A stretch of 64,000 nucleotides of DNA from Fistulifera solaris (taxonomy: Eukaryota). The position numbers and the translations under genes are program-made. The stretch is from positions 186,001-250,000 of the forward strand of contig AP026152.1 of assembly GCA_030295235.1 (NCBI GenBank), written 5' to 3'. Shown one piece after another: positions 22,893-41,326 of this stretch; within the stretch, counting starts at the first letter, position 1, and each line of letters begins with the position of its first letter. The notes beneath the pieces are model-generated. The model did not search any database and had not been told where the DNA came from. It saw only the letters and a list, made by a program, of their open reading frames with translations.

Positions 22893-23890
22893 CCTAGTGC
22901 AATAAAAAATTAAGCGCGTTAATTTTCTCGCGTTGAAGATTTTCGCAAAAGCGAAAACGGAGACGACGCAATGGGAAATGTTAGACAAGACAACCTTGTT
23001 ATCGCATACTTTAAGCTTTCCATTTGAATTATAAGTTCGTTTTCCTATCTCACTGCACACGTCAAAGGGAATTGGCGTTAATCTGCCGAGTATATAGCCG
23101 ACGCGACACGAAAGACCCTCGTGCCTTTCACAAAAATGATGCGCGCTCTCGCGTGGGTAGTCTGTGCTTTCGTTCTATCACAACAATCCACTGCTTTCTC
23201 ATCTAGACCGTGCTTTTCTCGAGTCGAAACACGGATCTTTGCTACTGCCGACGAAGATGGCAATGAACTCTTGACGAAAGAGGCCGCCTTGCGTGAAAAA
23301 GCCAATAGATTGGAAGAGTCTCTCAAGGCGAATCGACCCTCTGACCTGGACTTTGACGTATCTATTCGCCGATCGACCAGGGTCACACCCGATGTCACCT
23401 CTCCTTCCGAGCGAAGTCCGTACTACGGCAAGTTGACCGCATCTTTTTGAACGATGGCTACAGCGAAGTCGTTCGTCACACAAGTACGATCGAGCGACGA
23501 TGATAACGAATATTTGTTGCTTTCGATGAAATTTGTGTTGCCATCGATTGAACAAATTCGTAGGATTTTGTTCGCTGAAGAAACTATCACCGCTAAGGAG
23601 GTCTAGTAGATTTGCAAGCATCGACATGGAGAAGTCTCTGTTCTCGGCGAGGTTTTCGGCTGGGTTTCGTGCCGTCGGTCGAGCGACGACGATAACGAAT
23701 ACTTGTACTTGGCTCGGTCGATCTTGTGTTGCTCTATTTCAGCCCTGAAAAAGTGTCGATGGTACAGGTGCACTTCGATATTAGAAGGAAGGACAGCAGT
23801 AATGGAAGAAAGCGAGTTGAAGTCGTTTTCTTGAAACAGTTTATAGCTGTTTTTCTTGCTGTCGGCGAACTCATTGGGAAGCCTAGAGTA
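22893..23890 (+). pseudogene. Degenerate, internally deleted and rearranged duplicate of the gene at 25678-26400 and its upstream region
   Basis: Near-identical upstream DNA and N-terminus MMRALAWVVCA..LKANRP; then multi-base deletions, frame loss and a repeated block (CGAGCGACGAtGATAACGAATA near 23490 and 23680). Confidence 0.8.
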
Positions 23891-24176
23891 CTGCACTAGA
23901 AGACAATCACAAAAAGGTGAAACGAACGAAAAGCAAAAAGATCTGTATGTACTTTACGGAAAGAAAAGAATCTTCTCATGTTGGGAATTCCGTGAGGCTG
24001 ATTGAATTAACATGCTTTCCTGTCAGGTTCCACTTCCGACCGAGCCACAAATAATTCCTATGCAACAAACACCCGATAATTGACGAGCGTAGCCGCAGTT
24101 TTTTGTTTTTCGTGATGATTGTCACCGTGGCCTATCTTCTTGTCCATCTTTTCTTTCTTTGCCTTCTCGGCGCAGT

Positions 24177-25144
24177 CTACCTTGTGGTGAGAATTTCCCT
24201 TTTGACGTCGCCATAACCATCTCCACCGTCATTGTTCTTTTCTTCAACTACATTTAAAAAAAGTGCCAGTGCATCCTGCTTTGCATGCCTTTTAATGAAT
24301 TCATCAACCTGATTGAGACAGTAAAGGTCAAGGTCGATCTTGCTACGTACAATGTGGTCAAATTCTTGCCAAGTCTCACGGTGTCTGTGACAAGCAGAGT
24401 AGAACAGCGAATGGCAAGCGCTCATCAGAGAAGTGAAAGCGCCGATAGAAAGGGCACATCATCTCTACGCCACTTACCGGATATCAAAGCAATATTCTTT
24501 GTATTTTTTTCAATCGTAACTGTATGCGCCGCGAACGTCGTCACGGGATACCACTCCGTGGAGTTCTCGCTTGCAAATCGCTTGATTGCATCATGAAGTT
24601 CTCGCAGAAACAAAAGGCCGTCAGCTGCATCTGCAGCGACCTGCATCATGACGTGAAATACCGCTGGAACTCGGGTCCACACCAGTGTTCGTCTCTCGGC
24701 GAGACGCTTGTTGGACGGAAACAACAGCCTGCCGGTTCTTAGAGATACGATTTCGGTGTAATACGCGTGCAAATTCACGACACGCCAAATTCTTTCTGGC
24801 CTGAATCTAGTGCACGTCTCGGACGGAGGGTCGAATTCGAATTCGATCAAATCACCAACTTCAAATGGTCGCGCGTAATAGAAGAAGATGTCGTCGAAAT
24901 GCTTCCTGTACACATGAAAGCTATGACGAACAGAGACGACGATGGAAGTGCATGTTACGAGGTAAGGAGCCGTAGAAACAAAGTCAAGGAGCCAAGCAAT
25001 CGAAAGCGTGACGAAGAAATAGTAAAGGTCGCCCATCCCCACGAAAACGCAAAAACAATCCAGCGACTTTCGAGAGCCAAGTTCACCACGTTCTGACGTT
25101 ACAAGGCGGGGCAGTAAGTCATTTGTAGTGAATGAGTCTGTCAT
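24177..25144 (-). CDS. Miniature MscS-like protein, copy 1 (membrane-anchored type); intron 24477-24385; indel in the A-run near 24505
   Basis: YYARPFEVGDLIE..WRV..YTEI..SNKRLA..VWTRVP MscS beta-domain pattern; exon 2 HRETWQEFDHIVRSK. Confidence 0.75.
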
Positions 25145-25677
25145 CTTTACTTCCGCTTGCGCAACGAGGAAAGATAAATGCCTTGCTGCTTGTTGCAAGA
25201 ACTGTGAGATTGTGAAACATTTTTTCTTCAAACGTGATTAATTACGAAACGAAGAGTATCGTTTTGAAAAAGATTTTGATGTGAATGGATTGCTTTATTA
25301 TTTACTTTGTTCGTCGTCGCACGACGACGTCTCGTCTGCGCGTGCGTGCGCGGTGCGGTGCTGGTGCGCGCAAATGTGTGATGCGTTACCCCTAACCTTA
25401 CCGTAAATACGAGTCTAGTGCGAAAATAATATTCTCGCGTTGAACATACCAATAGGTACCTGGTACTGTGCTGTCGTACCGACAAAAAAGCGGAAACGGA
25501 GACGACGCAATGCGGGCAATGGGAAATGTTGGACAAAACAACCTTGTTATCGCATAGTTGAAGCTTTCCATTTGAATTATAAGTTCGTTTTCCTTTCTCA
25601 CTGCACACGTGGAATTGGCGTAAATCTGCCGAGAATTAACCGACACGACACGAAAGACCCTCGTGCCTTTCACAAAA

Positions 25678-26400
25678 ATGATGCGCGCTCTCGCGTGGGT
25701 AGTCTGTGCTATCGTTCTATCACAACAATCTACTGCTTTCTCATCTAGACCGTGCTTTTCTCGAGTCGAAACACGGATCTTTGCTACTGCCGACGATGAT
25801 GGCAATGAAGTCTTGAAGAAAGCGGCTGCCTTGCGTGAAGAAGCCAATCGACTGGAGGAGTCTCTCAAGGCGAATCGACCCGCTAAGGGTTCCAACATCC
25901 GTCCACAACCCAAAGCACCTCCAATGACATCGTACAAGTCCATGAAAGATTCGACCTGGACCTTGACGTATCGATTTGCGGATCGACCAGAGTCGCGCGA
26001 TGTCACGTCTCCTTCCGAACGAAACCTTTACAATGGCAAGTTGACCGTCATCTTTTTGAACGATGGCTACAGCGAAGTCGTTCGCCACGAAAGTACAAAT
26101 GTGAAAGTCCAGAAAGTATGGGGATGGGATGTGGAACGATCGAGCGACGATGATAACGAGTATTTATTGTTTTCGGTGGATTTTGTGTTGCCATCGATCG
26201 GCAAAGAGCGTTTCTATTTTCAAGCCCGAAAAAGTGTCGATGGCATAGGGAACATTTCGCTCGCGGAAGGAACTATAACAGTCAAGCAAGACGTAGTGGA
26301 TTCGAAAGCATCAAGATGGAGTCTCTTTTCTCCACGAGGAATTTTGGCCGAATTTCGGGCTGTCGGCGAATTCATTGGGAAACCGAGTACAGCGTTTTGA
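25678..26400 (+). CDS. Probably plastid-targeted protein of unknown function
   Basis: Intact ORF of about 240 aa; signal peptide followed by STAFSS, short coiled coil, beta-rich domain (VQKVWGWDVE, YLLFSVD). Confidence 0.75.
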   Translation: MMRALAWVVCAIVLSQQSTAFSSRPCFSRVETRIFATADDDGNEVLKKAAALREEANRLEESLKANRPAKGSNIRPQPKAPPMTSYKSMKDSTWTLTYRFADRPESRDVTSPSERNLYNGKLTVIFLNDGYSEVVRHESTNVKVQKVWGWDVERSSDDDNEYLLFSVDFVLPSIGKERFYFQARKSVDGIGNISLAEGTITVKQDVVDSKASRWSLFSPRGILAEFRAVGEFIGKPSTAF

Positions 26401-27304
26401 TCAAAAGAACATACAGAGCTTACGTTTTAAAACTGCGTTGCAGCTATGGAAGTGCCAAGCGTGAAAATCACAAAGTCAAATCACTGAATTATTAATGATA
26501 TGTAGACTATATATTTTTCACAAAAGTAGGAGGACTCGTATGGATGTTTTGGCGCGACCCTCAGAAGTCGACGTGCATCTGCGGTTGCTGTTCACTTCTG
26601 ACCAACAGCAAACCTACTGAACGAGGACTTTACATCTGCTCAGATCATTGAAAGCCTTCATTTTTGCTCCACTGTCACCTTGCTCCTTGTCTTCCTCGAT
26701 ACTTGACTTTTCCCACTTATCATAGAGTTCGAGCTTCATTCGTTTTAACAAGCGCTCATCATGCACCAACCGGAAACCCTTTGTTTTTTTTATCGAAGAG
26801 CTTCGAGTAAGACGCATCTGATTTTGCCTTCGATTTTGCAAAATATTGAATTGCCTGTACAAGTCGCACTTTGCTGCTCAAGACAAGAGCATACTCTTTC
26901 CATGACTGGCGGTGCCTGTCAAAGAGCAGAATGGAAGAGCGATGAAGCGTGACGTGTGAGAAATGTCATTTAGCAACTCAAGAAAGTCCAGGTTCATCGC
27001 TTATTCACGTACCGAATATTTATGCAATACTCCTTGTTTTCTTTAACAGCATGTTTGTCAAACGGTTCCACAGCAAACCATTCACTACTGGTACGTTCAG
27101 CATAACGAGAAATTATATCATTTGCTACAGGTAGCAATGAACAAAGTTTTAATTCGCACAAACACAAAACAACAAGGAAGTCTAACGAGGAATGCGAGTG
27201 AGGGTGACTCTAGTATTATTCAGCAATTAATTTGCGTGCATCTTCGTTTTCATGCGTCGAAGGCATATACATCAGGATTGTAGTTATCCGTACGAACGGA
27301 TACT

Positions 27305-28062
27305 TTACTCCGACTCGGGAAACAGATCGACCAATTCAGCAAATCCCGGCGGCAAAATGAGGTCGGCTCCGTTTTGTTGCATGGTTTGACTCAAAATCGC
27401 TTCGGTATGCGGTTTACCCAACGCCGCTTGCGCGGCCGCCGCTTCCGGTGTCGTGACTCCGACACCACTGCATCCCGCCGCGACCGCCGCCGTAATGTCA
27501 TCGGGGTATCGCCCACCAACACGACCGACCGCGACGGTTTGACACCGAGTAATGCGCAGACGCGCAATACGGGCGTCGGATCCGGTTTGCTGGGTCCATC
27601 TTCCATACAATAAGTAGCCGAAATCAGTGATTCCAATCCATGTTCGTGAAGAAATTTCATACAATCCGCACGCGGCCGTCCCGTGACAATGCCAATGCCC
27701 GGTTTCGATCGTTGGTGCAATGCGAGCAGAGTCTCTTTGTGTGGAATCAGTGTTTCCAGCGTACACAATCCCGGTGTATCCCCGTGTCCTTGATAGTATT
27801 GTTCAAACGTTTCTGTCACTTGTTCCAGCGTAATCTCTTGCTTGTTGGGTAATGTACTATACTCTTGAATGAGTCGATGCGACAGTTGCCAATCATCGTT
27901 GGCGTTGCCGCGTCGTTTCATTTCCGTGACAATGTCGTCATCGACGGCCGTCGCACCGTACGTGTGACACGTCTTGACAATGGCGGCCCGGTAGGATTGG
28001 GAAACTTCCGCAAGGACGCCGTCCATGTCTAATAAGAGTGTTGTGTATTTCGGAGACGACAT
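27305..28062 (-). CDS. HAD-superfamily subfamily IA hydrolase (TIGR01548-like); indel near 27503
   Basis: LLLDMDGVLAEVSQSY, ANDDW, IVTGRPR, KPDPTP, VGDTP|DDI after frame repair. Confidence 0.8.
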
Positions 28063-28564
28063 TGTGTGTTGATTGTTCTTGCTGGCTGTCACGCTAACGC
28101 AGAGACTCGACCCGAAAATAAAGAGAAGGAAATACAAGGAACAAGTAACGAGAGGTGTTGACTGGAAAGACATGAAATTCTTTCACCGCTTTATTGCAAC
28201 GAAATGAGCCGATCGGCGTGTCCGTGGCCGTCCATCATCGTCGTCGCGTCGAAATAAGAAAAAAAAAAAACTCGTGCCGACGATGTCGTTGTGACGCATG
28301 ACGTTTTCAGTCTAAACCATTTCTGTCGTACCGATTAATTATTCCGCGTGGAAGTTCACTTTTTTATGAAGTAGATTATGTACGATATTAGTCTGTCTTC
28401 GTCCGTATTGGTAGATGCGAAGCACGCAAACATCCATCAAAACACGACAACATCAACAAGACTTCAACATAGAAAAAGCAACCCTTGCTACTTTCTTATT
28501 ATTTGCAATCGTCTATAATCCTATCAACTCTTTCTTTCATCAACTTCACAATACTCTCGTCAGA

Positions 28565-29044
28565 ATGATGTCAAATACGCGCTTCGTTCTGTTCCTGATG
28601 ATGACATGGCATTTCGGACACTCCTTTCTCGTCGCTCCTCAACAGCCGACAACGACACGACTCTTCGGAATGGCGCAACCGGAAACACAAATCAAGACCA
28701 AAACTACGGTCAAGACAGCGAGCAAACAAAAGGTCGAAATCAAAAAGACATTCAAGACGGACGATCCCGTCCAAAATCGCGACGATGACTTTCAAGATGC
28801 GCCCATGTACAAGGTCATGTTGTTGCGCGATGACGATTACGATCAAGAACATGTTGTGACGCGATTGTGTGCCATCTTGGATGATATGGATGAAGATCAG
28901 GCGGCGACAGTATGGAAACAGGCCATGGCGGCCGGACAAGCCATGTGTGGCAAGTATCCGTTTGAGCGGGCGGAATTGTTCAAGGAACAGTTGTTGCGAT
29001 CGGATCCCATGATTTTTTGTGATCTGGTAGAAGAGAATGCTTGA
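28565..29044 (+). CDS. clpS: Plastid-targeted ClpS-like Clp protease adaptor
   Basis: PMYKVMLLRDD..EHVV..L..A..GQAMCGKYPFERAE; signal peptide followed by GHSFLV. Confidence 0.75.
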   Translation: MMSNTRFVLFLMMTWHFGHSFLVAPQQPTTTRLFGMAQPETQIKTKTTVKTASKQKVEIKKTFKTDDPVQNRDDDFQDAPMYKVMLLRDDDYDQEHVVTRLCAILDDMDEDQAATVWKQAMAAGQAMCGKYPFERAELFKEQLLRSDPMIFCDLVEENA

Positions 29045-29189
29045 GGGAGAAGGGGTTGGCGAGAATATTGCACTCCTTTTTTCTGGTGTTACCGCAACCG
29101 TGCCGCAATCTACATTATTAGCGTGTGTAAGTTTATTTGATAAAGAAGAAACAAACAAAAGATTAAACAAACAGTACAGGGAATGATCA

Positions 29190-30726
29190 TTAGTCGCTGC
29201 TTTTCGTCGACGAGATATCCAATGTCAGCAAGTCGTTGCTAAACACATCACCCGGAAGGCGTCCTCCAAACACGAGCAGACGCGAACCATCCAACACGGC
29301 CCGATGTCCGACGCGTGCCTCTTCACTGCCTATCTTGGGTCCTTTCGTCCACTCCCACGTTTCCGTATTCAATAAGAACGAATCCCCAAACACCACATCG
29401 TTCTCGTCGTTGGGATCCCATCCACCGTAGATACAGATCGTGTCATCGTGCCACACGAATGCCACATGGCCCGTCCGAGGACACGGCGGCGACCCCTTGG
29501 TTTGCACATTGCTCCATTCCCACGTCGTACGTTCCAAGACGTGCACACTATTGAAGCATTGTTCGGCATCGTTGCCGCCAAATACTACCATTTTGGTTCC
29601 ACACGCCGTGGCCGTGTGATACGACCGCGGACGGGGGCCGTTCCTTGAATCGTCGGTGTATGCCAGACCCAACGGAGGGTATCCAAGACGACAACTTTTT
29701 GTAAAAACTTGTTGCCGGAAACACCGCCCCACACGACGAGTTCGTGGCCCAGCAAGGTGGCCGTGTGACCACTCCGACCTTTGGGAATGTCGCCCGACAC
29801 CGACGGTGGATACCATACCATGATTTCGGTATCCAAGACCATGACGGGATGGACGATGTGGGATTTGCCGGTTTTGTCGTTGGTGCATTCACCGCCAAAG
29901 GCAATCAACAACTGACGTTCCGGCAAATACGTGGCGGTGTGCCACTGTCGTTTCCAGCCATCGCCATTGCTGAGTGGTTGGATCCAGCGGGTGCCATTGA
30001 AGAGATGCAAATCGTCCAGTGTCAAAGGTGTTGACGTCTCGGGGGACAGCGTTTGTCCTCCGTACACGAGAATGCGATTCGGGCCCAAGCACGTCATCGT
30101 ATGTCCCCAGCGTGGACACGGTGGCGGATACGAAGGTGGTAACAATAAGTCGTCGCCGAGTGAAACGCGCGTCGGAATGGGAGGTTGCGGCGAATGATCC
30201 GATTGCACCGACGTGTCGGGACTGGGTTGCTGTTGCAACAGTTCTTGGACGGGTTGTTTCGGGTGTGACGGTGTGGAGACGAAGTTCTGTGAAGGTGATG
30301 GCTCTTCCTCATCGCCCGTCAGTGTCGCCTGAGTTTGCGAAAGATCCGGTTGTCCTAGTAGAGTGTTGCTCGGATGAGTCGTTGCATTCGAGAAACGATG
30401 ATTCGAGACTTCTTCGATGCTATTGTTGGAGGAAGAAGACGAGTCTTCGAGGCGCACGCGCTTGTTACAACTGTCAATGTCATCCTGTAAAGGACGTTGT
30501 TTCGGAGTAATCTGGTTGATCTTCGTCGTAATCTCCACTGTCTCTTTGGAAGCGACAGCAGAATTCGAATCGATGGTATGCACACGCAAAGTACCCGAAA
30601 AGTTGGTCAATTGCAAAAGAATCGTTTCCTTGCTTTGTTGCGAAAAGAAACGGCTCCGGTCGGATCGTTCGGAACCAGCGTAAAGGCCACGCCGCCTAGA
30701 GAAAGCTGCAGCGTCGGAGAAGTCAT
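29190..30726 (-). CDS. Kelch-repeat protein; indels near 30643 and 29635
   Basis: Repeated PRWGHT/RSGHTA/RSYHTA/RTGHVA..GG..W Kelch blades spread over overlapping ORFs; start inferred. Confidence 0.8.
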
Positions 30727-31004
30727 GTCGTTCTCTGTGATGCTTGTTTTTCGATGAAACAATGACTCGAAGAGCAATGAGAGGAATGGCAACGAAAAGG
30801 AATGACACTCGTCATTCGACGGAGTTTGAATGGAATGAATTTGAGTGCGCGCACGCCACGCTTTATTACTTGGGGAAATTTGAAAATAATAGCGCGCCGG
30901 AATGGCCGCGAATGGTTTCGCGCCTTTTTATTTGTGACGCAGATGTCCGAAGTCCGAAATCATCATTATCCGACAGTTTGGAAACGCCCATCCCAGAACA
31001 AAAT

Positions 31005-31016
31005 CCATTCACATCA
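31005..31016 (+). promoter_or_regulatory. CCATTCACATCA element shared by the MscS-like genes (also 25277-25288 on minus, 32173-32184, 33597-33608, 38194-38205)
   Basis: Exact 12-mer in sense orientation 121-149 nt upstream of the ATG of five paralogs. Confidence 0.6.
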
Positions 31017-31137
31017 TTCCTTCTTTGAATCATCGGCAAATATCACGATTGGAGATTTCTTTTCAATATGTCTCACAAGTTCACGCCAGCAACAATCGTC
31101 AACGCACGCGATTGTTCATTTTATAGCGGAATTCAAG

Positions 31138-31807
31138 ATGACAGACAAGCTCGCCGCAATCAAACGCCCGTGGCCCGTCCTTCGTTTTCTCAAGGAAACT
31201 CTCGACGCCGCATTCACTTATCCCACCATAATGCATGTATGTGAGGTCGGCGATCTGATCGGAATCAACACTCCTGGACTTGTTCTCAGCACGCAACACG
31301 CCTACCGTGTCGAGTGCATCACCTGGATGCACACATCCCTCGTGTGCTTGGCCACTGGTGAGCGGCAACGTCGCCACAATTCCCGTATTTTCAATATTAA
31401 TGGCGTGAACAAGTGGAGTCGATCTCCAGCAACGTTTGAAGTCGTGCTGCCTGTGGGTGACAATGGCGGCGTTTCATTGGAATTTTTCAAGGAAAAGATT
31501 GAGCAATTTGCCAACGACAACCCCGGCGAATGGCGTGAAGTGAACACGTTCGATTGGTACCAATTGCCGGAAGGGCATCGCGTTTTGATTCAGTAAGTCG
31601 GATAGACAGTGGGGATTTGCGATGGCGTACATACTTGCCTGACTCTTTCTTTTATTCTTCTCTTTCGCTAGACACCACGAAAAGTGGGGACAACTTAAGC
31701 TCGTCTTGAAGAGCAGAGAAAAGCTGATTGCTTACTGCAAGCAGCTCACTGAAGAGCTTCGCCCGGAAGATGCTTCTCAAGACTTTGCAGTCACTGTTAG
31801 TCCCTAG
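31138..31807 (+). CDS. Miniature MscS-like protein, copy 2 (no transmembrane segment); intron 31593-31671
   Basis: HVCEVGDLI..YRVECITWMHTSL..TGE..HNSRI..WSRSPATF..IEQFANDNPGEW; exon 2 HHEKWGQLKLVLKSREKL; intact after splicing. Confidence 0.72.
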
Positions 31808-32321
31808 AGTTTAGGCTTGACGATGGTTCTCGTCTACGGGCTCTAAATTTCCGCTCATCTATAAAATAGGACTCATGGAATCCATTATACCTAACTTAAC
31901 TACTAGAGTACACGTAAGCCATTGTTCTTGTCTAAAGTAGGCTTTAATGCATCTTTAACAACTCGAACGATTGGAATGGGACGGAGGGTTCCACGTTCCA
32001 CCGAAAACACTGCTGATCCGGCTAAATCTATCTATGCTTGACGATGGTGCCCATGACGTCTTTAAGGTTAAGGGAACGCATCAAATATTCGCGCGCACCA
32101 TCGCGCACCGCAGCACGCAGCGTGCGCCGCACAGACGTCGTCGTTCGACACGCACTCCGTTCACATCAAAATCCATTCACATCAAAATCGTTTCATATAA
32201 TGATACTCTTCGTTTCGTAATTCATCACGTTTGAAGATGCGAACAATGTTTCACAAACTCACACTTCTTTTAACAAGCAGCAATGCAGTAATCTATCTTC
32301 CTTGCGCAAACGGAAGTAAAG

Positions 32322-33338
32322 ATGACAGATTCATTCACTGCACATGACTTACTGCCCCGCCTCGTAACGTCAGAACGTGGTGAACTTGGCTCTCGAAAGT
32401 CGCTGGATTGTTTTTGCGTTTTCGTGGGGATGGGCGACATTTACTATTTCTTCGTCACGCTTTCGATTGCCTGGCTACTTGACTTTGTTCCTACGACTCC
32501 TTACCTCGGAATATGCACTGTCATCGTCGGGTGGGTACAGGGTAACATTTCTTTGTACAAGGAGTGTTTCAACAAGATCTTTTTTTATTACGCGCCGCCA
32601 TATGAAGTTGGTGACTTGATCGAAGTCTGTTACGGATCCAATCCTCCGACCGAGACGTGTACTAGATTCAGGCCAGAACGAATCATGCGTGTCGAAATAA
32701 TTCGAACGCTGACCACCTGGGTCAGCTCTTTGGAAGACGGCAGGTGGACGTGTCTGTCCAACGAGCTTCTCACCGATAGACAAACACTGGTGTGGTCTCG
32801 AGTACCTGCGGTATTTCGAGTCATGATGCAGGCCATTGCGGATGCAGCTGACGGCCTCTTGTTTCTGCGAGAACTCCATGCGGCGATCAAGCGATTTGCA
32901 AGCGAGAACTCCACGGAATGGTATCCGGTAAAGACGTTCGCGGAGGACGCAGTTATAATTGAAACTGGGTACAAAGAATATTGCTTTGATATCCGGTAAG
33001 TGGCTTAGAGGTGGTGTGCCTTTTGTAACGGCACTTTCGCTTCTCTGATCTGCGCTTGCCATTCGCTGTTGTACTCTGGCTTTCACAGATACCGAGAGAC
33101 TTGGCGAGAATTTGACCACATTATACGTAGCAAGATCGACCTTGACGTTGACTGTAGTAATCAAGCGGAAAAGTTTTACAGAAGTCGTGCAAAGCGGGAT
33201 GCAGTGGCACTTCCTAATGTAGTCGAGGAAAAGAACAATGGCAGTGAAGATGGTAATGGCGAAATGACGGACAACACCGAGGGGAACAATGAGATGGAGG
33301 GTCATCGCCTGCTTTATTATCGCATTTTGGTTAAATAG
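32322..33338 (+). CDS. Miniature MscS-like protein, copy 3 (membrane-anchored type); intron 32996-33088
   Basis: YYAPPYEVGDLIE..MRVE..TT..SNELL..VWSRVP; exon 2 YRETWREFDHIIRSK; intact after splicing; inverted paralog of copy 1. Confidence 0.78.
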
Positions 33339-33717
33339 ACTCGCTTGATTTGTTGATGGCTGCAAGTATTAGCAACAAAATCCCCCAACATAAAAATCAA
33401 TTTTGTTAAATATTTTTCCTTTTGAAGTTGGACGCAATAGCCGAATCTTGATTTTTGCACTTTTGTTTCGTAAATCGTTACTGTTCGGTTAGCGGAATGT
33501 CTTACATTGATACTTGTCAACATAGCTTCTTCACGACTCCTCACGTCGAGGAGTCACGTTTCACGTATTTTCGCTCGCTCACAAAAAAAAACCGATCCAT
33601 TCACATCATTATCATTAGTTACTCCGTATCATTTCAAAATAATGTTTCACAGACTCACTCTTCCTGTAACAAGCAGCAAGTCAGTTGTCTTTCCGCGTTG
33701 CGAAAGCGGAAGTAAGG

Positions 33718-34713
33718 ATGACAGAGTCATTCGCTGCAAATGACGACGACTCACTGCCCCGCTTACTGACGCCACGACGTGGTGAAGTTTCCTTCGACAA
33801 TTTTTTGCTTGTTTCTGCGCTTTTATGGGGATCGACACCATCTTTTATTCCATCTTCATTTTGTGGATTGCCTGTCTACTTGACTTTGTTCCTCCGGATT
33901 TCTTCTTCGCAGTATGCGCGGCAATTGTCGCCTTGGCACATCGTAGAATCCCCGGATACCAGGAGCATTTTTACGACATCTTCTTCTATTACTCGAGACC
34001 TTACGAAGTTGACGATGTGATTGAATTCAATCCTCTGTCTGTGACGAGTTCTAGACCCCAGAAGAAAAGACTGTGGCGTGTCGTGAGAGTCCACGTGTTT
34101 TTCACCGAAATCACAACCCTCTGTGGCCTCGACGCGAACCATTATTTTCCGTCCAATAAGAGTCTCGCCACGAGACATATACTTGTTTGGACTCGAGTTC
34201 CAGCGATATTTCAGGTTGCAATACAGGTCGATGTCGATGCAATTGACGGCCTCTTGTTGCTACGAGAACTCCACGAAGCAATTGAGTGGTTTGCGAATTT
34301 CAACTCGAACAAATGGCATCCCGTGAAGTCGTTTGTAGAGGATGCAGTAACAACTGAAAATGATTACTATGATTATCGCATTGATATGGAGTAAGTGACA
34401 AGGAGATGATGTGTCTTTTGTCTTTGCACTCTACCGTCTCTGATATGATATTGTTGGGCCTCTCCTCTCTTGGGGTTAACACAGACACCGAAAGACGTGG
34501 GGAGAATACGAGTGCGCTAGCTTAGTTGAGCTTATCCTTTACTGTCGCAAACTAAAGGAAAAGTTCATTAAAAGTCCTGTAGGACGGGATGCAGTGGCAC
34601 CCTTCAACGGTGCTAGACACAATAACGAGAAATGTGGAGATGACACGAAAGAAGTGAAGAGTCTTGAGATCAGAAAGTATCATGACCTTGACTTTCGCAT
34701 CTTTGTTGTATAG
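33718..34713 (+). CDS. Miniature MscS-like protein, copy 4; indel near 33795; intron 34391-34484
   Basis: MTESF..LPRLLTPRRGE N-terminus; YYSRPYEVDDVIE..WRVV..FTEI..PSNKSLA..VWTRVP; exon 2 HRKTWGEY. Confidence 0.72.
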
Positions 34714-35018
34714 AGCTACAACGTATTGGATTATTTTGAGATGATAAGCGGTAGGCTTTGTAATCGGTATAACATCAAGTGCTATGTAAATGTTGAAGTA
34801 TAGAAACAATGGTCAAATGCTGAACGTTAAAGTCTTCGATTTATTGAAGAGTAAGTATATTCCTACGAAACGACTTTTGTTCCGCGTACCATTACTGTCT
34901 GGTTTACACAATTTATCATACCGGGATTAGTCAAACTAGTTTGTGCAAGACTCACGACGGGTCACGATTCCTTCATGCATTCTCTGCGTTTGAAATATTT
35001 AGAAACTCTAGACTAGAC

Positions 35019-35691
35019 CTACGGGAACACAGTGATTGCAAAGTCATCAGAAGCATCTACCGGGCGAAGCTCTTCCGTAAGCTCCTTGCAGTAAGCAATC
35101 AACTTTTCTCTGCTCTTCAAGACTAGATCCAGCTGTCCCCACTTTTCGCGGTGTCTATAGCAAAGGAAGAAACGAAAGGAGTCAGGGAAGCATGCACGCC
35201 ATCACAGATCATCATCTCTCGACTTACTGAATCATAACACGATACCCATCAGGCGTTGGATCACAATAAGACGTGCACGCCACGAACCATTCGCCAGGGT
35301 TGTCGTTGGAAAATTGCCGAATCTTGCTCTTCAGCAAAGAATCCCAGAAAATACCGTCGGTAGTATTCACCGGCACCGGAAGCATGATTTGAAACCTTAC
35401 TGGGCAATAACTCCAGCAAGTCATCGATCTGTAGCGGCAAAGACTCGAATTGTGCCAACGAACCCGCTCACCGTTGGCCAAGCAAGTGACCTCCGTGTAC
35501 ATCCAGGCGATCTTGTCGACGCGGTACACGTTTAGCGTGTTGAGGAAAACGCTATCGTTAGGCTGATCGAACTCGATAAATTCGCCAACCTTGCAAGGAT
35601 GTCCGTTATAGAAGTCAATGGCGTCGAGACTATCCCGGAAAAAGCGAAGAATGAGCCGGGGAAAAGTGATTGCGGCGGACTTGTCTGTCAT
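35019..35691 (-). CDS. Miniature MscS-like protein, copy 5 (no transmembrane segment); intron 35227-35155
   Basis: HPCKVGEFIE..YRVDKIAWMYTEV..NGE..HNSSL..IRQFSNDNPGEW; exon 2 HREKWGQLDLVLKSREKL, nearly identical to copy 2. Confidence 0.72.
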
Positions 35692-36096
35692 CTTTACTTC
35701 GATTTGTTCTGAGAAATGAACGTGCGTTCGCGGTGATGATTGTTGCTGGGGTAAATTTGTGAGACATTTTGCAAAGAAACCGTAAGTTTTAGTTTTATTC
35801 GTGATATGTTTCGTTTCAAAGCAAGATGAATGCGTTTTGCGACGCGACGAGCAGTTTTTTTATACTGTATTTGCCGAAAACCTTTGAGTCCCGTGAAATA
35901 GACGCACGACTCGTCGTCCTCGAAGAAACTGCACCGCAAAAACGCAAAAAAAAAACAATCCATTCATGTCGTTTTCATTTGCAAACAGCACTCTTGCCTT
36001 CCAATAATAGTCTTTCAAAATGTCTTATAATCTTTCCCCAGCGATCATTCACATCGCCAGCGCTAGTTCGTTTTTTCAGCGTCAACGAAAGCGACG

Positions 36097-37341
36097 ATGA
36101 TGACCGACACTTTGCCCGCTGCAAATAACTCTACGAGCCGTCCAGAAGTTCCCTTCGGACGAAAACTGGCTGCTTTCTTCTTTCAGCTGATCTATTTGGA
36201 CTATTTCTTTCTCCTCACATGGATCTTTCTCTATTGCGCCTTTGGCATTATTCCGTCTGCCGTGTTTTGGACCATTTTCATCATCTTTGCGATTCTCCTC
36301 TATGCCTTGCTGATCGGTGTATACTACGCCAACCATTACGATCGCCATCCCTTCTATTACCAGCTGCTTCCTTACGAGATTGGAGATTTGGTGGAAATTG
36401 ACCCGACCGAAGACAGTGTCTATCTCAAGATGGAGAACGTTTACCGTGTCAAATATATCGATTTCGTGTGCACGCATTTCGAATTCTTGAATCGCCCCGG
36501 GGTGATGAATTGGCCCAATGAAGCTCATCTGAACAGTCGCTTTATTATCTGGAGTAAGCGGGCGGCGATATTTCACATCATTCTACCGATTTCCCGTGGA
36601 AGTACGTGATGTCTCCGTGTTGCTGGCTCGTCTTTACGAGAAAGTTGTGCAGTACGCCAACGACAATTCTCGCGAATGGCGGAGCGTGACTTTGCCTATC
36701 ATCGATGCCATTACGGAGGACGGGAAGTACGCGGATTATTGCATTGAGATTCAGGAAGTCGAGTAAAGATATCGTACTTGTTGCGTATGCCCTCTTCCTT
36801 CTCTGACGTGTGATATCTCGCTTCGGTAATTCACAGACATTGCGAGTTGTGGCGTCAATATGACTGCGTCGTGGAAAGCAAAGATAAGTTGAGCAAATAT
36901 TTAGAAGGTCTAGAGCAAGAAGGAGTTTTCAAGAGCGGAAGCACTTTTGAAAACGAGAAAGATAGTAGCGACGATATTGAGAAAAGTCGTGACAACGAAG
37001 GCCGAAAGAGCAGTTACAACCACGATGCCTACATAGTTGATGAGGACGAATTTATAAAGATAGCCGATGACGAAGCAGACGTAGAAAACCAAATTGGCGG
37101 AACATCTTTGAAAACCATTGCTCAAGCTGAAAGTGTTGATGGCGAAGGACAGTATGATGGCAAGAGCCACTGCAATGGCGTTAGCTGCAACGACGATTAC
37201 AACATTGACTACACCGAACACGATACACTAAAGAAGCAGGAGATCTTGAGAACCAAATGGGTGATGAAGCATCAACTATCAAATTTTCATTCGATCTTAG
37301 ACAAGAAGTCTTTTTTGTGCGGTTGCAGTTGGTCGATCTAG
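36097..37341 (+). CDS. Miniature MscS-like protein, copy 6, with a long acidic tail; indel near 36590; intron about 36763-36836
   Basis: Strongly hydrophobic N-terminus; LPYEIGDLVEI..YRVKYIDFVCTHF..WPNEAHL..WSK; NDNSREW..YCIEIQ in the shifted frame; exon 2 HCELWRQYDCVVESK. Confidence 0.68.
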
Positions 37342-38339
37342 CCATCTAATCGCATAATTTTTCACATAGTTTGATTTTGTTTGTTGAAGTTTTGTTACAT
37401 CTTTTAGGATTATTAGTTGTAGCTGGAGGAGTCCGAACGTGTGAGCAGTTCGAGCTATTCTGCTAATGTTACGTTGGCCATTAACCAAATTCGATCTTCG
37501 AGATTCATATTCTTATTAGAAGGGCACTTGGCAAATTGGTAAGATACTGCGAGGAGTTTGTAGGGCGCAGTGAGACTCTTGTCGAACGTATAACATTCGG
37601 CATCTAACCAAAATGTTCATTAAGGAGGTCAGGTGCGTCCCCATATTCCCATGCGAAAGACTCAAAAAGCGATAATTCGTGAACCAGGTGCTGGAGTAAA
37701 TGACTTTTTCCTTTGCACATTTGTGTGGGTGACCGTTACTGCATGGTGGTGTACGACGGCATCAATAGTTTATTCTGCACGACTCACAACTTGTCACGAC
37801 TCATCCAAGTACAGATTTTCCTTGTTGCGATCGAAATAATGCAACCCAATTCCCATTCACATTAATATCGCATTACAAGCAGAGGCGCTCGACTTCTACC
37901 AATTCATTCCGTTCGAAAATGAATAGATGTTGCAAATTTAAGACGGCAACAATGACAAGCGTTTGTTCCTTATCGTTAGCGCCATCCAAAGTGAAGTTGA
38001 CTGACAAGTTTCCGCAATTAAGCTTCCCTGCTCCCTCTTTCGCTTCCTCGAAAATAGTCTCAACGCCAACTTTTGTTACATGAATTCTCGTTTCAAGCAT
38101 GGCGACTTATTGTACGTGTTTTCGGCGTTCAACTAACTGAGTCCCGCAACAACGGGGCCACGATACGGGTGCTAACTGCGCACAATAAAATGCCCATTCA
38201 CATCAAAATCTCTTTGTTGACAGCGCACTTCTTCTCTTTACTCTTTGAAATCAACAATATTCACAAAAACTTGCAAACAACAATCTACATCGTGAATTGC
38301 AAGCTCATCTCTCGAACGGGTAGTGGGACGAGAAAAAGA

Positions 38340-39332
38340 ATGACTGAAACATCCGCCGCAAGCTCACCGTGCCCGCCGATGTTGCCCGAACGTTGTGAAA
38401 TTTCCTTCCGACAATCGTTTGCTTGTTTGTGCACTTCCGCGGGGATAGACGACATGTTTTACTTCAGCGTCACGTTCACCATTGCCTTTTTACTTGGCTT
38501 TGTTCCACCGGATCTCTACTTTTCCGCGTGCTGTCCCGTTGTCACCCTTTTATGGTTGAAAGTCCGTCGTTACAGGGAACATTCCGACGCTTTCATCTTT
38601 TACTACCTGCGACACCCTTATGAAAAAGGTGATCTGGTTGAATTTGACTGCCCGCCTGTGACAATGGAAGGTCCGCATGAGGAACACACTTGGGGGTGTT
38701 GTGGATTTCGACTTGTATTATACGGAACTGGTCTCAGTGAGATTCAGCTTGAGAAAATATACATCCAACAAAAGCCTCGCCAAGAAACGAATCAAGAACT
38801 GGAGTCAAGTGCCAGTAATTTTTAAGGTCTTTTTCGAGGTCCCTGTGGACACCGTTGACAGCCTCTTATTACTGAAAGAATTACATGCAGATATTGGGCG
38901 GTTTGCGAAAAATAGCCCTCTCGAATGGTTTCCCGTAAAAACATTTGTTGAAGAGGCAGTTAAAATTGAAAATGAATACAATGCATATTGTATTGAGATC
39001 CAATAAGTCGCGTAACGATGGAAACATGCCTCGAGTGTTTGAGATTCAAATCTGAAATTTGTGACGCTTCTTTCCTCTTCCATTACTCCACATCTTACAG
39101 ACATCGCGAGACATGGAATGAGTTCAATCTCGTTTTGTGCAGCAAAGCCCAGCTAGTCCTAGAATGCATGGAGCTGAATGAGAATCTTCGCGAAGGACTT
39201 GCAAAGCGGTATGCAACGCCCACAGCTGACGAGGACGTCAGCATGGATCGTGATATTGGCGATATCAACAACGAGGAGGGCGTCCAAAAGAGGGAGGATA
39301 AGCATCACAGTTGTTATATCTTTGTTGGATAG
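38340..39332 (+). CDS. Miniature MscS-like protein, copy 7 (possible pseudogene: donor reads AT rather than GT at 39003); indel near 38692
   Basis: YLRHPYEKGDLVEF..VV..YYTELV..SNKSLA..NWSQVP..KNSPLEW..YCIEIQ; exon 2 from 39101 HRETWNEFNLVLCSK. Confidence 0.68.
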
Positions 39333-39449
39333 ACTTGGTGACAATTGATAATTGAGCAACAAAGTTTCCTTCTGTTGTCACGTTATGATACTTGTAATGG
39401 TCATGAACCCAGGCGCAAAAGTACAATTCTCCACAGCCAATTATTACCG

Positions 39450-40922
39450 CTACCCCTCTTCTCGCGTATTATCGGAGTCCAACAGTTGCAGTATCTTTGT
39501 CCGTCGAGCGTCTCCTTCTTGCCATTGCACAAAACTCTTCGCCAATTCTAGCGCGGCCGTCCCATCTTCGTCATCATCCGTTACTCGTATGCTGCTCAAC
39601 CATTTTACAACTTCTGATCGTCCAAAGGCTACCGCATGTGTCAATGGCGTGTTCCCACCGTGGTTGGAAACAGAAAAGTCGACTCGTAATACTTCGTGCA
39701 AATAGCGACATACGTCGACATTGCCTCCGGACGCCGCCCAATGCGCGACCGTACAACCGTTTCGATTCGTGACATTCTGGGCTTGCGCACCATACGACGC
39801 CAACAGCTTGACAGTCTTCAATGTCCCCGACCAACTCGCCCACATGAGTGGCGAATTGCCATCTTTCGTGCATTGATTGACGTACGCTAATTGTTGCTGT
39901 TCGGGGATTCGTTGGATCAAATAGTCACACACGTCAGGATGACCAAAGGTCCCAAATTCCCGAGCCGTCGTTCCTGCTGCAGACCAATGCAAAGGCGTAG
40001 CCCCATCCCGTGCCGCCGTATCCTGCACCGACAATCCCAACCGTATTAACATCTCTACGCCTTCGAAATACCCCGTCCCACTTGCCCAGTGCAACAAAGT
40101 CGCCCCCTGGTAGTCACGTTCGTGTAAATTGGCGCCATGCTGATACAACAGATCGATGAGTTGTGCGGCAGTCGGTGCATTGTGCTGAAGTGCCCACGTA
40201 GTCGAATTGTTGTAACAGTTTTGATGCCATTCATTCCGTGCCGCCGCCATGAGACCTCTACCAAATAACGTATCAAAAGCTTCCACTTTTTGATGTGTAA
40301 ATTGAGCTTGCGTGGTCGTATATTGTTGTTGCCAGCGTTGACAGAGTGCCGCAAAGGATTTGGCATTGCGTGCGTGCAACATAAAGTCGAGAAACAAGGT
40401 GCTGTTGGCTCGAAAGAGCTCCGGACCGTGCGGCAATCGATGATGCACCAAAAAGGCGTGCCGCGGGGCCAGTATTTTTTCCAGTCGAGCACCCCAGTAA
40501 TAGGGTGGTAAATCGACCTGGGATGGGTCTGAAATGCCCAAGGTATGACGCAGAAATTCCATCTTGGGATGCACTTGTTGTTGCACCGATAATGTCAACA
40601 GAGGAGGAAAGGATTGATTCATTTGAAAAATTTGTTCTGTCGTATAGCCACCGTAGTCTTTCAAATAGGTAACAGGATCAGCTGTATGAATTGTTGCATT
40701 GTAGGTATGTCGATAGAGATATTTGAAGACATGGTTGAGGCGTCGAGCGGGCCGAGGTTGTGTGACGCGTTGTATGTGCGGCTTATTTTTACTGTCAGCC
40801 GCTGGCACTGAAAACCGTGTCGTGCATTGTTGACGAGCCGAAAACGATGAGATCCATGATCGAACGTATTTTACGGAAACGAATGAATATAAGAGCCATT
40901 TCAAGCGCAACAACTTCATCAT
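39450..40922 (-). CDS. Ankyrin-repeat protein with an N-terminal mTERF-like segment, probably organelle-targeted
   Basis: GATLLHWAS, GATPLHWSA, GNSPLMWAS, GCTVAHWAA, GNTPLTHAV; FPPLLTLSV..HPKMEFL..LEKILAPRHAFL. Confidence 0.8.
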   Translation of the reverse strand: MMKLLRLKWLLYSFVSVKYVRSWISSFSARQQCTTRFSVPAADSKNKPHIQRVTQPRPARRLNHVFKYLYRHTYNATIHTADPVTYLKDYGGYTTEQIFQMNQSFPPLLTLSVQQQVHPKMEFLRHTLGISDPSQVDLPPYYWGARLEKILAPRHAFLVHHRLPHGPELFRANSTLFLDFMLHARNAKSFAALCQRWQQQYTTTQAQFTHQKVEAFDTLFGRGLMAAARNEWHQNCYNNSTTWALQHNAPTAAQLIDLLYQHGANLHERDYQGATLLHWASGTGYFEGVEMLIRLGLSVQDTAARDGATPLHWSAAGTTAREFGTFGHPDVCDYLIQRIPEQQQLAYVNQCTKDGNSPLMWASWSGTLKTVKLLASYGAQAQNVTNRNGCTVAHWAASGGNVDVCRYLHEVLRVDFSVSNHGGNTPLTHAVAFGRSEVVKWLSSIRVTDDDEDGTAALELAKSFVQWQEGDARRTKILQLLDSDNTREEG

Positions 40923-41326
40923 CGTCGAGTAAAAATAATAATGAAAGATGATGGACATTGCAAGGCTGAGTCACGCGACGGAAGAAAGTGTCAGTCGTAT
41001 TATTGACGTCAGTTCACGGATAGTGCAGAGTGCCGCTACGATACAAAGCATGCTAAGTAGTGGGTACCGGTGCCGCACAGGCAGCGGAGTGCAACGGTAA
41101 AAACCGCAAGCACGCGACGAAATAATACGCGGCACTTCGTCATTATAGTCTAGTAATAGCACTTTCTATTTCTTATACCAGTAAGTTTATTATCAAAAGA
41201 GCATTGAATTGAATCTAAGCTAACACTACAGACCAAACGAAACCCAATCTCATCATTTCTTTTACAAAGCAAAACTCCCTTGCTAGTTCGTTTATTTCGT
41301 TCGTTTGATTCACGCACAATAAGGCC

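Follow-up and report, generated by a model that had tools for sequence, protein, structure and literature searches.

Work on the MscS family treats its proteins as membrane channels, and the cytoplasmic vestibule is mostly seen as an accessory of the pore. In MscS structures, the base of the ring is built from the last helix and strand. The two genes considered here, copies 2 and 5 of an MscS-like tandem family of the diatom Fistulifera solaris, find their best profile and structural matches in MSL10 of Arabidopsis and Flycatcher1 of the Venus flytrap (8tdj, 8tdm, 8jwe, 7n5d), with which they share a TM3b/TM6b-like helix, the beta domain, and the alpha/beta domain. MSL10, however, has more than 730 residues, a multi-helix membrane domain, and a pore-lining helix, whereas copies 2 and 5 have no membrane helix and their neighbours have two transmembrane (TM) helices; the structural alignment of copy 5 begins only at MSL10 residue 539. 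E. coli MscS (2oau, 6rld, and others) comprises TM1 to TM3 and a gated pore. Its residues ~95-268, which begin at the end of TM3 and include the vestibule, are matched by the copy 5 model (Z 9.0-9.3), but the diatom copies lack equivalents of TM1, TM2, and TM3a, and identity amounts to 8-14%. TcMscS of Trypanosoma cruzi (structure 9bgu; PMC8282336) is a short eukaryotic protein of the family and a membrane channel; its similarity to the copy 5 model concerns the N-terminal half of the latter (Z 8.0, 84 residues) and is limited to model residues 1-93. An engineered, soluble E. coli MscS fragment, "ABDOM" (alpha/beta domain, residues 175-265), is credited in the cited part of PMC4440785 with an activity of its own, namely FtsZ interaction and cell filamentation. 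ABDOM is a laboratory construct of one subdomain, whereas the diatom copies are natural genes that combine the TM3b-like helix with both the beta and the alpha/beta domain. The diatom proteins represent an extreme natural reduction of the MscS family in a eukaryote, in which the whole vestibule was kept and the pore helix lost.

The window analysed, a 64,000-nt stretch of F. solaris contig AP026152.1, contains copy 2 at 31138-31807 on the plus strand and copy 5 at 35691-35019 on the minus strand, both as intact two-exon genes with open frames that encode 196 and 199 amino acids, respectively. The initial annotation had described both copies as intact after splicing, which holds: each consists of two open exons, and the products are 100% identical to the GenBank hypothetical proteins FisN_14Hu099 (P0001) for copy 2 and FisN_14Hh104 (P0137) for copy 5. 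Exon 1 of copy 2 (31138-31592) is devoid of a TM segment and covers the MTDK start, the TM3b-like helix, the beta domain, and most of the alpha/beta domain. It is followed by a phase-2 intron of 79 nt with GT..AG borders (31593-31671), situated at the position of the family intron, and by exon 2 (31672-31807), whose 44 codons plus stop encode the last helix and the terminal strand. In case of copy 5, exon 1 (35228-35691), again without a TM segment, a 73-nt intron (35155-35227), exon 2 (35019-35154; 44 codons plus stop), and a short 3' untranslated stretch (34985-35018) succeed one another on the minus strand. The beta-domain motif had been placed about 30 residues past the MTDK start and was indeed found to begin at residue ~36 (EVGD) in copy 2 and at residue ~34 (KVGE) in copy 5. 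Both copies are best regarded as genuine protein-coding genes of F. solaris.

Both copies belong to a Fistulifera tandem family of 2-TM MscS-like genes (copies 1, 3, 4, 6, 7, and 8), as indicated by start context and upstream elements, by intron position and phase, and by the homologous soluble domain. A phase-2 intron after the alpha/beta domain is common to all family copies, and tblastn of copy 5 exon 1 matched copy 1 (E 8e-16) and copy 3 (E 6e-11). Copy 3 (32322-33340, plus strand; exons 32322-32995 and 33089-33340, intron 32996-33088) is an intact 2-TM paralog and served as the reference for the membrane-bearing form. The 2-TM paralogs copy 1 (FisN_14Hh094; 24177-25144, minus strand), copy 4 (33718-34713, plus strand), copy 6 (36097-37341, plus strand), and copy 7 (38340-39332, plus strand) are interrupted in this assembly, and the whole cluster is therefore in flux. 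The interruption of copy 1 is at an A7 run near 24505. The reading frame changes in copy 4 near 33797 (T6 run), in copy 6 near 36590, and in copy 7 near 38690 (G5 run), and copy 6 also lacks 31 nt at 37240 compared to another contig. Copies 5 and 6 lie head to head with 405 nt between their ATGs, and the TM-bearing copy 8 (P0018; 63393-64000, plus strand) is cut by the window end. Expanded MscS families are reported for pennate diatoms, with up to 18 homologues in the Naviculaceae in the cited part of PMC11085791.

The family copies have the start context ATGACAGA in common; ahead of it stands GTAAAG in three of them (copies 1, 3, and 5), and copy 4 has GTAAGG there. A function of the conserved GTAAAG as splice donor was ruled out, since copy 2 lacks it. 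The upstream element ATCCATTCACATC is located at 31003-31015 on the plus strand, 123-135 nt 5' of the copy 2 ATG; exact occurrences precede copies 1-4, and a version with 2 mismatches precedes each of copies 6 and 7. The search returned 11 matches compared to 2.27 expected, a number reached in 0 of 100 shuffles. Upstream of copy 5 no such element was found at up to 2 mismatches. Thus, of the start context and upstream element initially ascribed to both copies, the former is present in both and the latter, exact at copy 2, is absent at copy 5 within this limit. A second element, AATGTYTCACAR, lies ~70 nt 5' of both ATGs, with 1 mismatch in copy 2 (TATGTCTCACAA, 31067-31078, plus strand, containing an out-of-frame ATG) and exactly in copy 5 (AATGTCTCACAA, 35757-35768, minus strand).

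The predicted lack of any hydrophobic stretch in copies 2 and 5 was borne out. The usual TM threshold on the Kyte-Doolittle 19-residue mean is 1.6; the maxima are 1.10 for copy 2, 0.86 for copy 5, and 1.72 for copy 3, with no hydrophobic segment in copies 2 and 5 and two in copy 3. In the alignments, the ~60-65 residues that contain both TM helices of the paralogs are missing from copies 2 and 5. Due to the absence of membrane-spanning helices, including the pore-lining helix (TM3a equivalent), both copies are not classed as channels.

The relationship to MscS emerges from profiles and models rather than from direct scans. No MscS match was obtained in a Pfam scan of copies 2 and 5 even at E<=10, nor was an MscS chain found when the profile of the TM-less clade alone was compared to PDB sequences. 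The family profile A1, in turn, matched structures of Arabidopsis MSL10 (8tdm and others) with E 6e-9, profile positions 12-179 corresponding to residues 522-677. A deep search yielded 134 relatives; among 50 scanned, 36 matched PF00924 at E<=0.01 and 32 reached the gathering score. Comparison of the clade profile (A4) with 15 PF00924-positive proteins (A5) by hhalign gave a probability of 98.5% and E 3.5e-15 over 156 columns, and the beta-domain signature (PF00924, MS_channel_2nd) was accordingly recognised by profile methods and not by the direct Pfam scan. For the AlphaFold model of copy 2 (pLDDT 82.9), AtMSL10 was the best Foldseek match (E 7e-8); the top 50 rows listed were all MscS-family channels, with 52 matches at E<=1e-3. 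The model of copy 5 (pLDDT 86.8) aligned to AtMSL10 539-723 over 175 residues with VIA Z 13.1 and an rmsd of 3.9 A, to E. coli MscS (2oau) 95-268 with VIA Z 9.3, and to MscS, MscK, and YnaI with VIA Z 9.0-10.4. In the predicted models of both copies the fold of a vestibule subunit (TM3b helix, beta domain, alpha/beta domain) was found, the matches starting at the TM3b-like helix and taking in the beta and alpha/beta domains, and the pore-lining helix being absent. The identification as MscS cytoplasmic domains made in the initial annotation is hence supported by the family profile, the profile-profile comparison, and two AlphaFold models. Judged from sequence and predicted structure, both copies correspond to the cytoplasmic (vestibule) domains of the MscS family, have no TM helix, and are closest to plant MSL10. 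A three-chain complex prediction of copy 5, in which the alignment was unused, scored 0.00 against a mark of 0.32 and has no bearing on self-association.

Six distinct intact TM-less sequences were identified, which fall into two sublineages and occur in both subgenomes, FisN_14Lh104 and FisN_14Lu110 being those of the other subgenome. In the tree, the six TM-less rows form one clade (support 100/99, stem 0.88) nested among the 2-TM forms, which indicates that the membrane part was lost once. The deep search found the clade only in F. solaris and in one further record, and no relative was found in metagenome contigs searched with P0003 and with the clade alignment A4. Short deep-search matches starting at the beta domain (e.g., P0020, P0024, P0036, and P0058) were left out of the TM-less count, since they may be partial gene calls. 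Compared by eye, the N-terminus of copy 2 (MTDK..AA..RP.PVLR) resembles the N-tails of the TM-bearing P0008 and P0009. Copies 2 and 5 would descend from an MSL10-type, MscS-like channel of small size with 2 TM helices, which presumably lost its outer TM helix together with the pore-lining one (TM3a equivalent) in a single in-frame deletion of ~60-65 residues. Retained are a short tail at the N-terminus, the TM3b-like helix, which is amphipathic, both the beta and the alpha/beta domain, and the terminal strand, which together make up one subunit of a cytoplasmic vestibule, or "cage", without a pore. The exact borders of the deletion are uncertain due to the placement by MAFFT of the block IKRPWPVLRF under TM2 and not in the N-tail.

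Evidence of expression comes from contigs of runs X2-X4, which are not recorded as RNA and were read as such from spliced joints, poly(A)-type ends, and patchy cover. In contigs of these three RNA-like runs, copy 5 is spliced exactly as predicted: the intron is skipped with 0 mismatches in X3 and X4, with which a loose end in X2 is consistent. A loose end of 21 T before 34985, i.e., a poly(A)-type tail on the minus strand, is present in one X4 contig. No intron-skipping joint of copy 5 occurs in the DNA-like run X1. A ~91% relative, a mosaic matching FisN_14Lh104, is covered from ~51 nt 5' of the ATG through exon 2; it contains three gaps of one or two bases, which add up to 3 nt and therefore leave the frame intact. 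Lack of expression, named at the outset as an outcome that would speak against the two genes, thus seems not to apply to copy 5, whereas expression of copy 2 itself was not seen. RNA-like contigs were found neither over copy 2 exon 1 nor over copies 3, 4, and 7, which is no evidence on their expression, and the six locus tags looked for were not found in the 11 supplementary files of the homoeolog expression paper (PMC5935921). Copy 6 is covered by exact RNA-like contigs. The RNA-like runs in which copy 5 was seen contain neighbouring 2-TM paralogs as well.

Exon 2 of the two copies, initially called almost identical, shares 117 of 136 nt (86%) and 37 of 44 amino acids (84%), so that this wording was too strong; exon 1 is more diverged, as had been stated, with 313 of 444 aligned nt (70.5%) and 67 of 149 amino acids identical. 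The introns are identical at 80.6%, i.e., above exon 1, and the relatives of the other subgenome are mosaics. The better preservation of intron and exon 2 is attributed to gene conversion, which likewise confounds the comparison of dN/dS between copies 2 and 5 (exon 1 0.68, exon 2 0.25, overall 0.59). Due to the high values for exon 1 and overall, constraint on both copies is considered weak. A ratio near 1, which had been taken as a sign of decay, was not obtained, nor was strong constraint: the overall ratio differs from 1 (Fisher p 0.006) and lies inside the range of the TM-bearing paralog pairs (0.50-0.68).

Several explanations compete with that of maintained vestibule proteins. It is highly improbable that the gene models are wrong at the 5' end and that an unseen upstream exon or another start adds TM helices to otherwise ordinary channels. 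In favour of this, a hydrophobic ORF segment is located ~450 nt 5' of copy 2. Moreover, the RNA contigs shown do not extend to the 5' end of copy 5 of the window itself, and transcript starts cannot be read from contigs. However, the ORF (30417-30683) was rejected as a lost TM exon of copy 2, being without similarity to family proteins in tblastn and separated from the ATG by the conserved, promoter-like upstream elements, and similar hydrophobic windows are also present upstream of copy 5, where copy 6 occupies the opposite strand. The same start is found in 6 out of 6 clade members, start and DNA context are those of the family, and the GenBank models agree. In copy 5, an in-frame stop precedes the ATG at 35691, with no other in-frame ATG in between; in case of copy 2, a stop-free in-frame extension reaches to 30802 but lacks hydrophobicity (maximum 0.95). 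No support was obtained for a spliced exon further upstream that contributes TM helices, listed as a refutation in the initial annotation: the contig covering the ~91% relative stops ~51 nt 5' of the ATG and shows no joint.

Less remote, albeit still unlikely, are truncated relics of a fast birth-and-death cluster, transcribed without a selected function and held open in part by gene conversion from intact relatives. In agreement with such relics, exon 1 does not clearly depart from neutrality (omega 0.68, Fisher p 0.07), the mosaic relatives reveal ongoing conversion, copies 1, 4, 6, and 7 are interrupted in the assembly, and the clade is narrow. On the other hand, six distinct sequences in two sublineages and both subgenomes have remained intact, whereas in a substitution-only simulation 0.2-0.3% of ORFs were still open at 0.3 substitutions per site and lineage, the level of divergence observed (exon 1 dS between copies 2 and 5 is 0.64). 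Exon 2 departs from neutrality (omega 0.25, p 0.005), as does the overall ratio at a value usual for TM-bearing pairs, fold-defining motifs are retained, and the models are confident. Moreover, conversion by TM-bearing donors would have restored the TM region, which is not the case. A soluble protein with a new role that abandoned the MscS-type ring contacts, i.e., a monomeric or dimeric binding module for which "cage" is the wrong picture, is improbable to a somewhat greater degree. The clade is situated on the longest inner branch of the tree (0.88), its divergence is too great for Pfam or a direct PDB sequence match, and the copy 5 lineage is cysteine-rich (8 Cys in the 199 residues of copy 5), all of which would fit such a module. 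But the whole vestibule subunit is kept, including the TM3b-like helix and the terminal strand, and exon 2, encoding the last helix and strand, is the best-conserved part.

Taken together, copies 2 and 5 are rather probably real, maintained vestibule proteins without TM helices. Since they are without a pore helix, the TM-less proteins alone would not be expected to conduct ions. As maintained vestibule proteins they may still use the subunit contacts of the vestibule and form rings, either of their own or mixed with the adjacent 2-TM paralogs. In a mixed ring, each TM-less subunit would remove one pore helix, and the channel would be weakened or blocked. The initial annotation had suggested that the two proteins could act as regulatory or dominant-negative partners of the membrane-anchored copies, or as oligomeric cages by themselves. 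Within the reading as maintained vestibule proteins, mixed channel-modulating rings and a free soluble or peripheral ring with another role are given roughly equal, lower weight. It is only tentatively proposed, and is open to considerable doubt, that the clade represents a maintained, expressed lineage of natural pore-less MscS subunits, either soluble or peripheral to the membrane, which form free heptameric cytoplasmic cages or co-assemble with 2-TM paralogs and thereby set the number of pore helices.

Copies 2 and 5 represent an unusual natural "channel without a channel", in which only the inner, water-soluble part of a pressure-sensing channel is encoded. No description of a natural TM-less MscS protein was found in the literature, a weak negative with results swamped by "MSCs" (stem cells). 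CRISPR ribonucleoprotein editing is reported for F. solaris (PMC13276009), and therefore the idea of pore-less subunits is testable in this organism. If co-assembly with 2-TM paralogs holds true, the pore-less subunits would amount to a built-in stoichiometric regulator of mechanosensitive channels, undescribed for this family in the literature reached. The locus also provides a clean example of domain loss in a rapidly duplicating, gene-converting tandem family of an allodiploid diatom. A vestibule-only lineage would give a direct handle on the abilities of the vestibule itself, i.e., assembly, sensing of crowding, and partner binding, and would bear as well on the tuning of channel rings by pore-less subunits.

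Eight MscS-like paralogs of the diatom Fistulifera solaris were located by tblastn of the copies against the window and frame-by-frame reading, namely copies 1 (25144-24177, minus strand), 2 (31138-31807, plus), 3 (32322-33340, plus), 4 (33718-34713, plus), 5 (35691-35019, minus), 6 (36097-37341, plus), and 7 (38340-39332, plus), together with copy 8, which runs from 63393 and is incomplete at the window edge. The two-exon structure that the initial annotation gave for copies 2 and 5 was recovered, with exon 1, a GT..AG phase-2 intron (79 and 73 nt, respectively), and an exon 2 of 44 codons. The spliced products are 100% identical to the GenBank proteins FisN_14Hu099 (database handle P0001, 196 aa) and FisN_14Hh104 (P0137, 199 aa), which are labelled as hypothetical proteins only. 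Both were described as devoid of a transmembrane (TM) segment, and this observation was confirmed: the 19-residue hydropathy maximum is 1.10 for copy 2 and 0.86 for copy 5, compared to 1.72 for the first TM helix of the intact copy 3, and in the alignments approximately 60-65 residues with both paralog TM helices are missing. The helix at the N-terminus of copy 5 is strongly amphipathic, its hydrophobic moment reaching 0.75, so that peripheral membrane contact of this protein is possible.

Since Pfam detected the MscS domain in none of the window copies, even at E<=10, the assignment as MscS-like needed testing. A profile of nine family members matched Arabidopsis MSL10 structures (E 6e-9) over the last two TM helices, the beta domain, and the alpha/beta domain. 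A full HMMER scan of 1.84 billion representatives returned 134 relatives, of which 50 were scanned with Pfam; PF00924, the beta-domain signature of the MscS superfamily, was present in 36 of these at E<=0.01 and reached the gathering score in 32. A profile built solely from the six TM-less sequences reached no MscS chain in the PDB sequence set, and was aligned to 15 PF00924-positive proteins with an hhalign probability of 98.5% (E 3.5e-15). AlphaFold models of copies 2 and 5 (pLDDT 82.9 and 86.8) consist of a single N-terminal helix, the beta domain, the alpha/beta domain, a long last helix, and a terminal strand. Foldseek matches listed for copy 2 are exclusively MscS-family channels, including AtMSL10 (E 7e-8), Flycatcher1, YnaI, MscS, MscK, YbiO, and MSL1; with VIA, copy 5 was superimposed on AtMSL10 539-723 (Z 13.1, rmsd 3.9 A, 175 residues) and on E. 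coli MscS residues ~95-268 (Z about 9). Membership in the MscS family thus holds despite the silence of Pfam. Judged from sequence and model, copies 2 and 5 are MscS-family vestibule subunits, i.e., the soluble cytoplasmic part, beginning at about the position of the TM3a/TM3b junction in E. coli MscS. Although homologous to channels, they are not classed as such, because the membrane pore helix, the defining channel feature, is absent.

MscS families are expanded in pennate diatoms, according to PMC11085791, and a laboratory-made soluble part of E. coli MscS was reported to have its own activity (PMC4440785). A description of a natural TM-less MscS-family protein was not found in the literature, in search results that were noisy. 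The nearest published extreme is MscS2 of microsporidia, in which, according to PMC11262690, TMH3 and the beta domain are kept in a still heptameric membrane channel, a reduction opposite to that of copies 2 and 5.

With copies 2 and 5 as queries, six different TM-less sequences were retrieved: P0001 (copy 2), P0003 (76% identity to copy 2), P0137 (copy 5), and P0138 (FisN_14Lh104), P0139 (FisN_14Lu110), and P0140 with 83%, 72%, and 69% identity to copy 5, respectively. P0002 matches copy 2 at 99%, and its ORF extends further upstream. In a maximum-likelihood tree of the soluble domain (34 rows; P0017 and P0022 were left out as too short), the six TM-less rows fall into a single clade (support 100/99) with a long stem (0.88), nested among 2-TM forms. 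The membrane part was lost once, and the TM-less form kept in both subgenomes. The TM-less N-termini (MTDK-AA, followed by RP.PVLR or P.LILR) are similar to the tails at the N-terminus of TM-bearing relatives, P0008 and P0009 among them, in keeping with an internal in-frame deletion and not a new start as the probable origin; its exact borders are uncertain because MAFFT aligned the N-terminal block differently.

Four coded sequencing runs (X1-X4), none recorded as RNA, were compared with positions 23800-39800 of the window. X1 contigs cover everything and carry no intron joints. Contigs of X2-X4 are patchy, skip introns at GT..AG ends, and have poly(A)-type loose ends, and on these grounds the three runs were read as RNA; such contigs show neither transcript starts nor expression levels. 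In case of copy 5, 35154 is joined to 35228 without mismatch in X3 and X4 contigs, an X2 contig stops at 35154 with a loose end equal to the next exon, and a run of 21 T precedes 34985 in one X4 contig. Another contig, more abundant and of ~91% similarity, with indels summing to 3 nt, covers copy 5 exon 1, reaches back to about 51 nt before the ATG, and runs on into an exon 2 matching that of copy 2 better, which is the mosaic of FisN_14Lh104. Exon 1 of copy 2 has no contig cover in the RNA-like runs, which is uninformative on its expression. TM-bearing transcripts occur in the same runs, copy 1-like at about 95% identity and copy 6 exact. Copies 5 (minus) and 6 (plus) form a head-to-head pair whose ATGs are separated by 405 nt (35691-36097); the same RNA-like runs cover both, and a shared bidirectional promoter is possible. 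Unrelated neighboring ORFs occur at 28415-29044 (+), 27391-28173 (-), 29190-30097 (-), and 39450-40958 (-), in whose translations a ClpS-like stretch, a HAD-hydrolase-like, a Kelch-repeat-like, and an ankyrin-repeat protein were seen by eye; the gene at 28473-29068 is well covered in RNA-like runs.

The conserved motif ATCCATTCACATC is situated 110-150 nt upstream of the ATG, exact in copies 1-4 (25278-25290, 31003-31015, 32171-32183, 33595-33607) and with 2 mismatches in copies 6 and 7 (35958-35970, 38192-38204). It has 11 matches in the window versus 2.27 expected, and probably serves the family as a promoter or initiator element. A second conserved motif, AATGTYTCACAR, precedes the start by about 70 nt in copies 1-5 (31067-31078, 32245-32256, 33641-33652, and, on the minus strand, 25210-25221 and 35757-35768). 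It holds an ATG that in copy 2 is not in frame with the main ORF and would open an overlapping upstream ORF. Because the contig ~91% similar to copy 5 stops just downstream of this motif, AATGTYTCACAR may mark the transcription start instead.

A dN/dS near 1, proposed as the sign of decay, does not describe copy 2 versus copy 5 (Nei-Gojobori; Fisher tests on rounded counts) over the whole CDS (omega 0.59, p 0.006) or exon 2 (dN 0.10, dS 0.42, omega 0.25, p 0.005), but is less clearly departed from in exon 1 (dN 0.43, dS 0.64, omega 0.68, p 0.07). Pairs of TM-bearing paralogs range from 0.50 to 0.68; the whole family is fast-evolving, with the TM-less pair at the top of the range and not standing out. 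In a substitution-only simulation, 0.2-0.3% of such ORFs were still open at 0.3 changes per site, so that six open sequences argue for maintenance of the reading frames, an argument weakened by conversion among them. Intron (80.6% identity) and exon 2 (86%) are closer between copies 2 and 5 than exon 1 (70.5%). Taken with the mosaic relatives, this suggests that the 3' part underwent gene conversion, possibly alongside a tighter constraint on the helix and strand at the C-terminus. Two relatives are clear mosaics: of the first 100 residues of FisN_14Lh104, 98 are those of copy 5, and the remainder goes with copy 2; FisN_14Lu110 has a differing N-terminus and, in its C-terminal half, is almost the same as copy 5. 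These patterns point to gene conversion or recombination among TM-less paralogs and between subgenomes.

In this assembly, single-base frame changes interrupt four TM-bearing copies out of six. Three of the changes fall in homopolymer runs, in copy 1 (24505, A7), copy 4 (~33797, T6), and copy 7 (~38690, G5); the fourth copy affected is copy 6 (~36590 and 37240). As the genome was first analysed by pyrosequencing, according to bioRxiv 10.1101/2021.11.10.468027, these changes may be assembly errors. An X1 contig across copy 4 has one gap relative to the window, and contigs at copy 1 carry one additional base at 24503-24506. The frame change of copy 6 is reproduced exactly by RNA-like contigs, and compared with another X1 contig, this copy is missing 31 nt at 37240. 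The GenBank model of copy 1 (FisN_14Hh094, P0006, 24177-25144) treats precisely the TM-coding stretch as an intron and also bridges the frame changes; since spliced contigs of the ~95% relative keep this stretch contiguous, the model looks like an annotation artefact and not like a second TM-less form.

Copies 2 and 5 represent a retained pore-less vestibule subunit, spliced in case of copy 5. Their initial interpretation as soluble cage proteins, either partners of the membrane-anchored copies or stand-alone cages, is partly supported. The conserved subunit contacts would be used for rings, formed by the TM-less proteins alone or mixed with their 2-TM paralogs.
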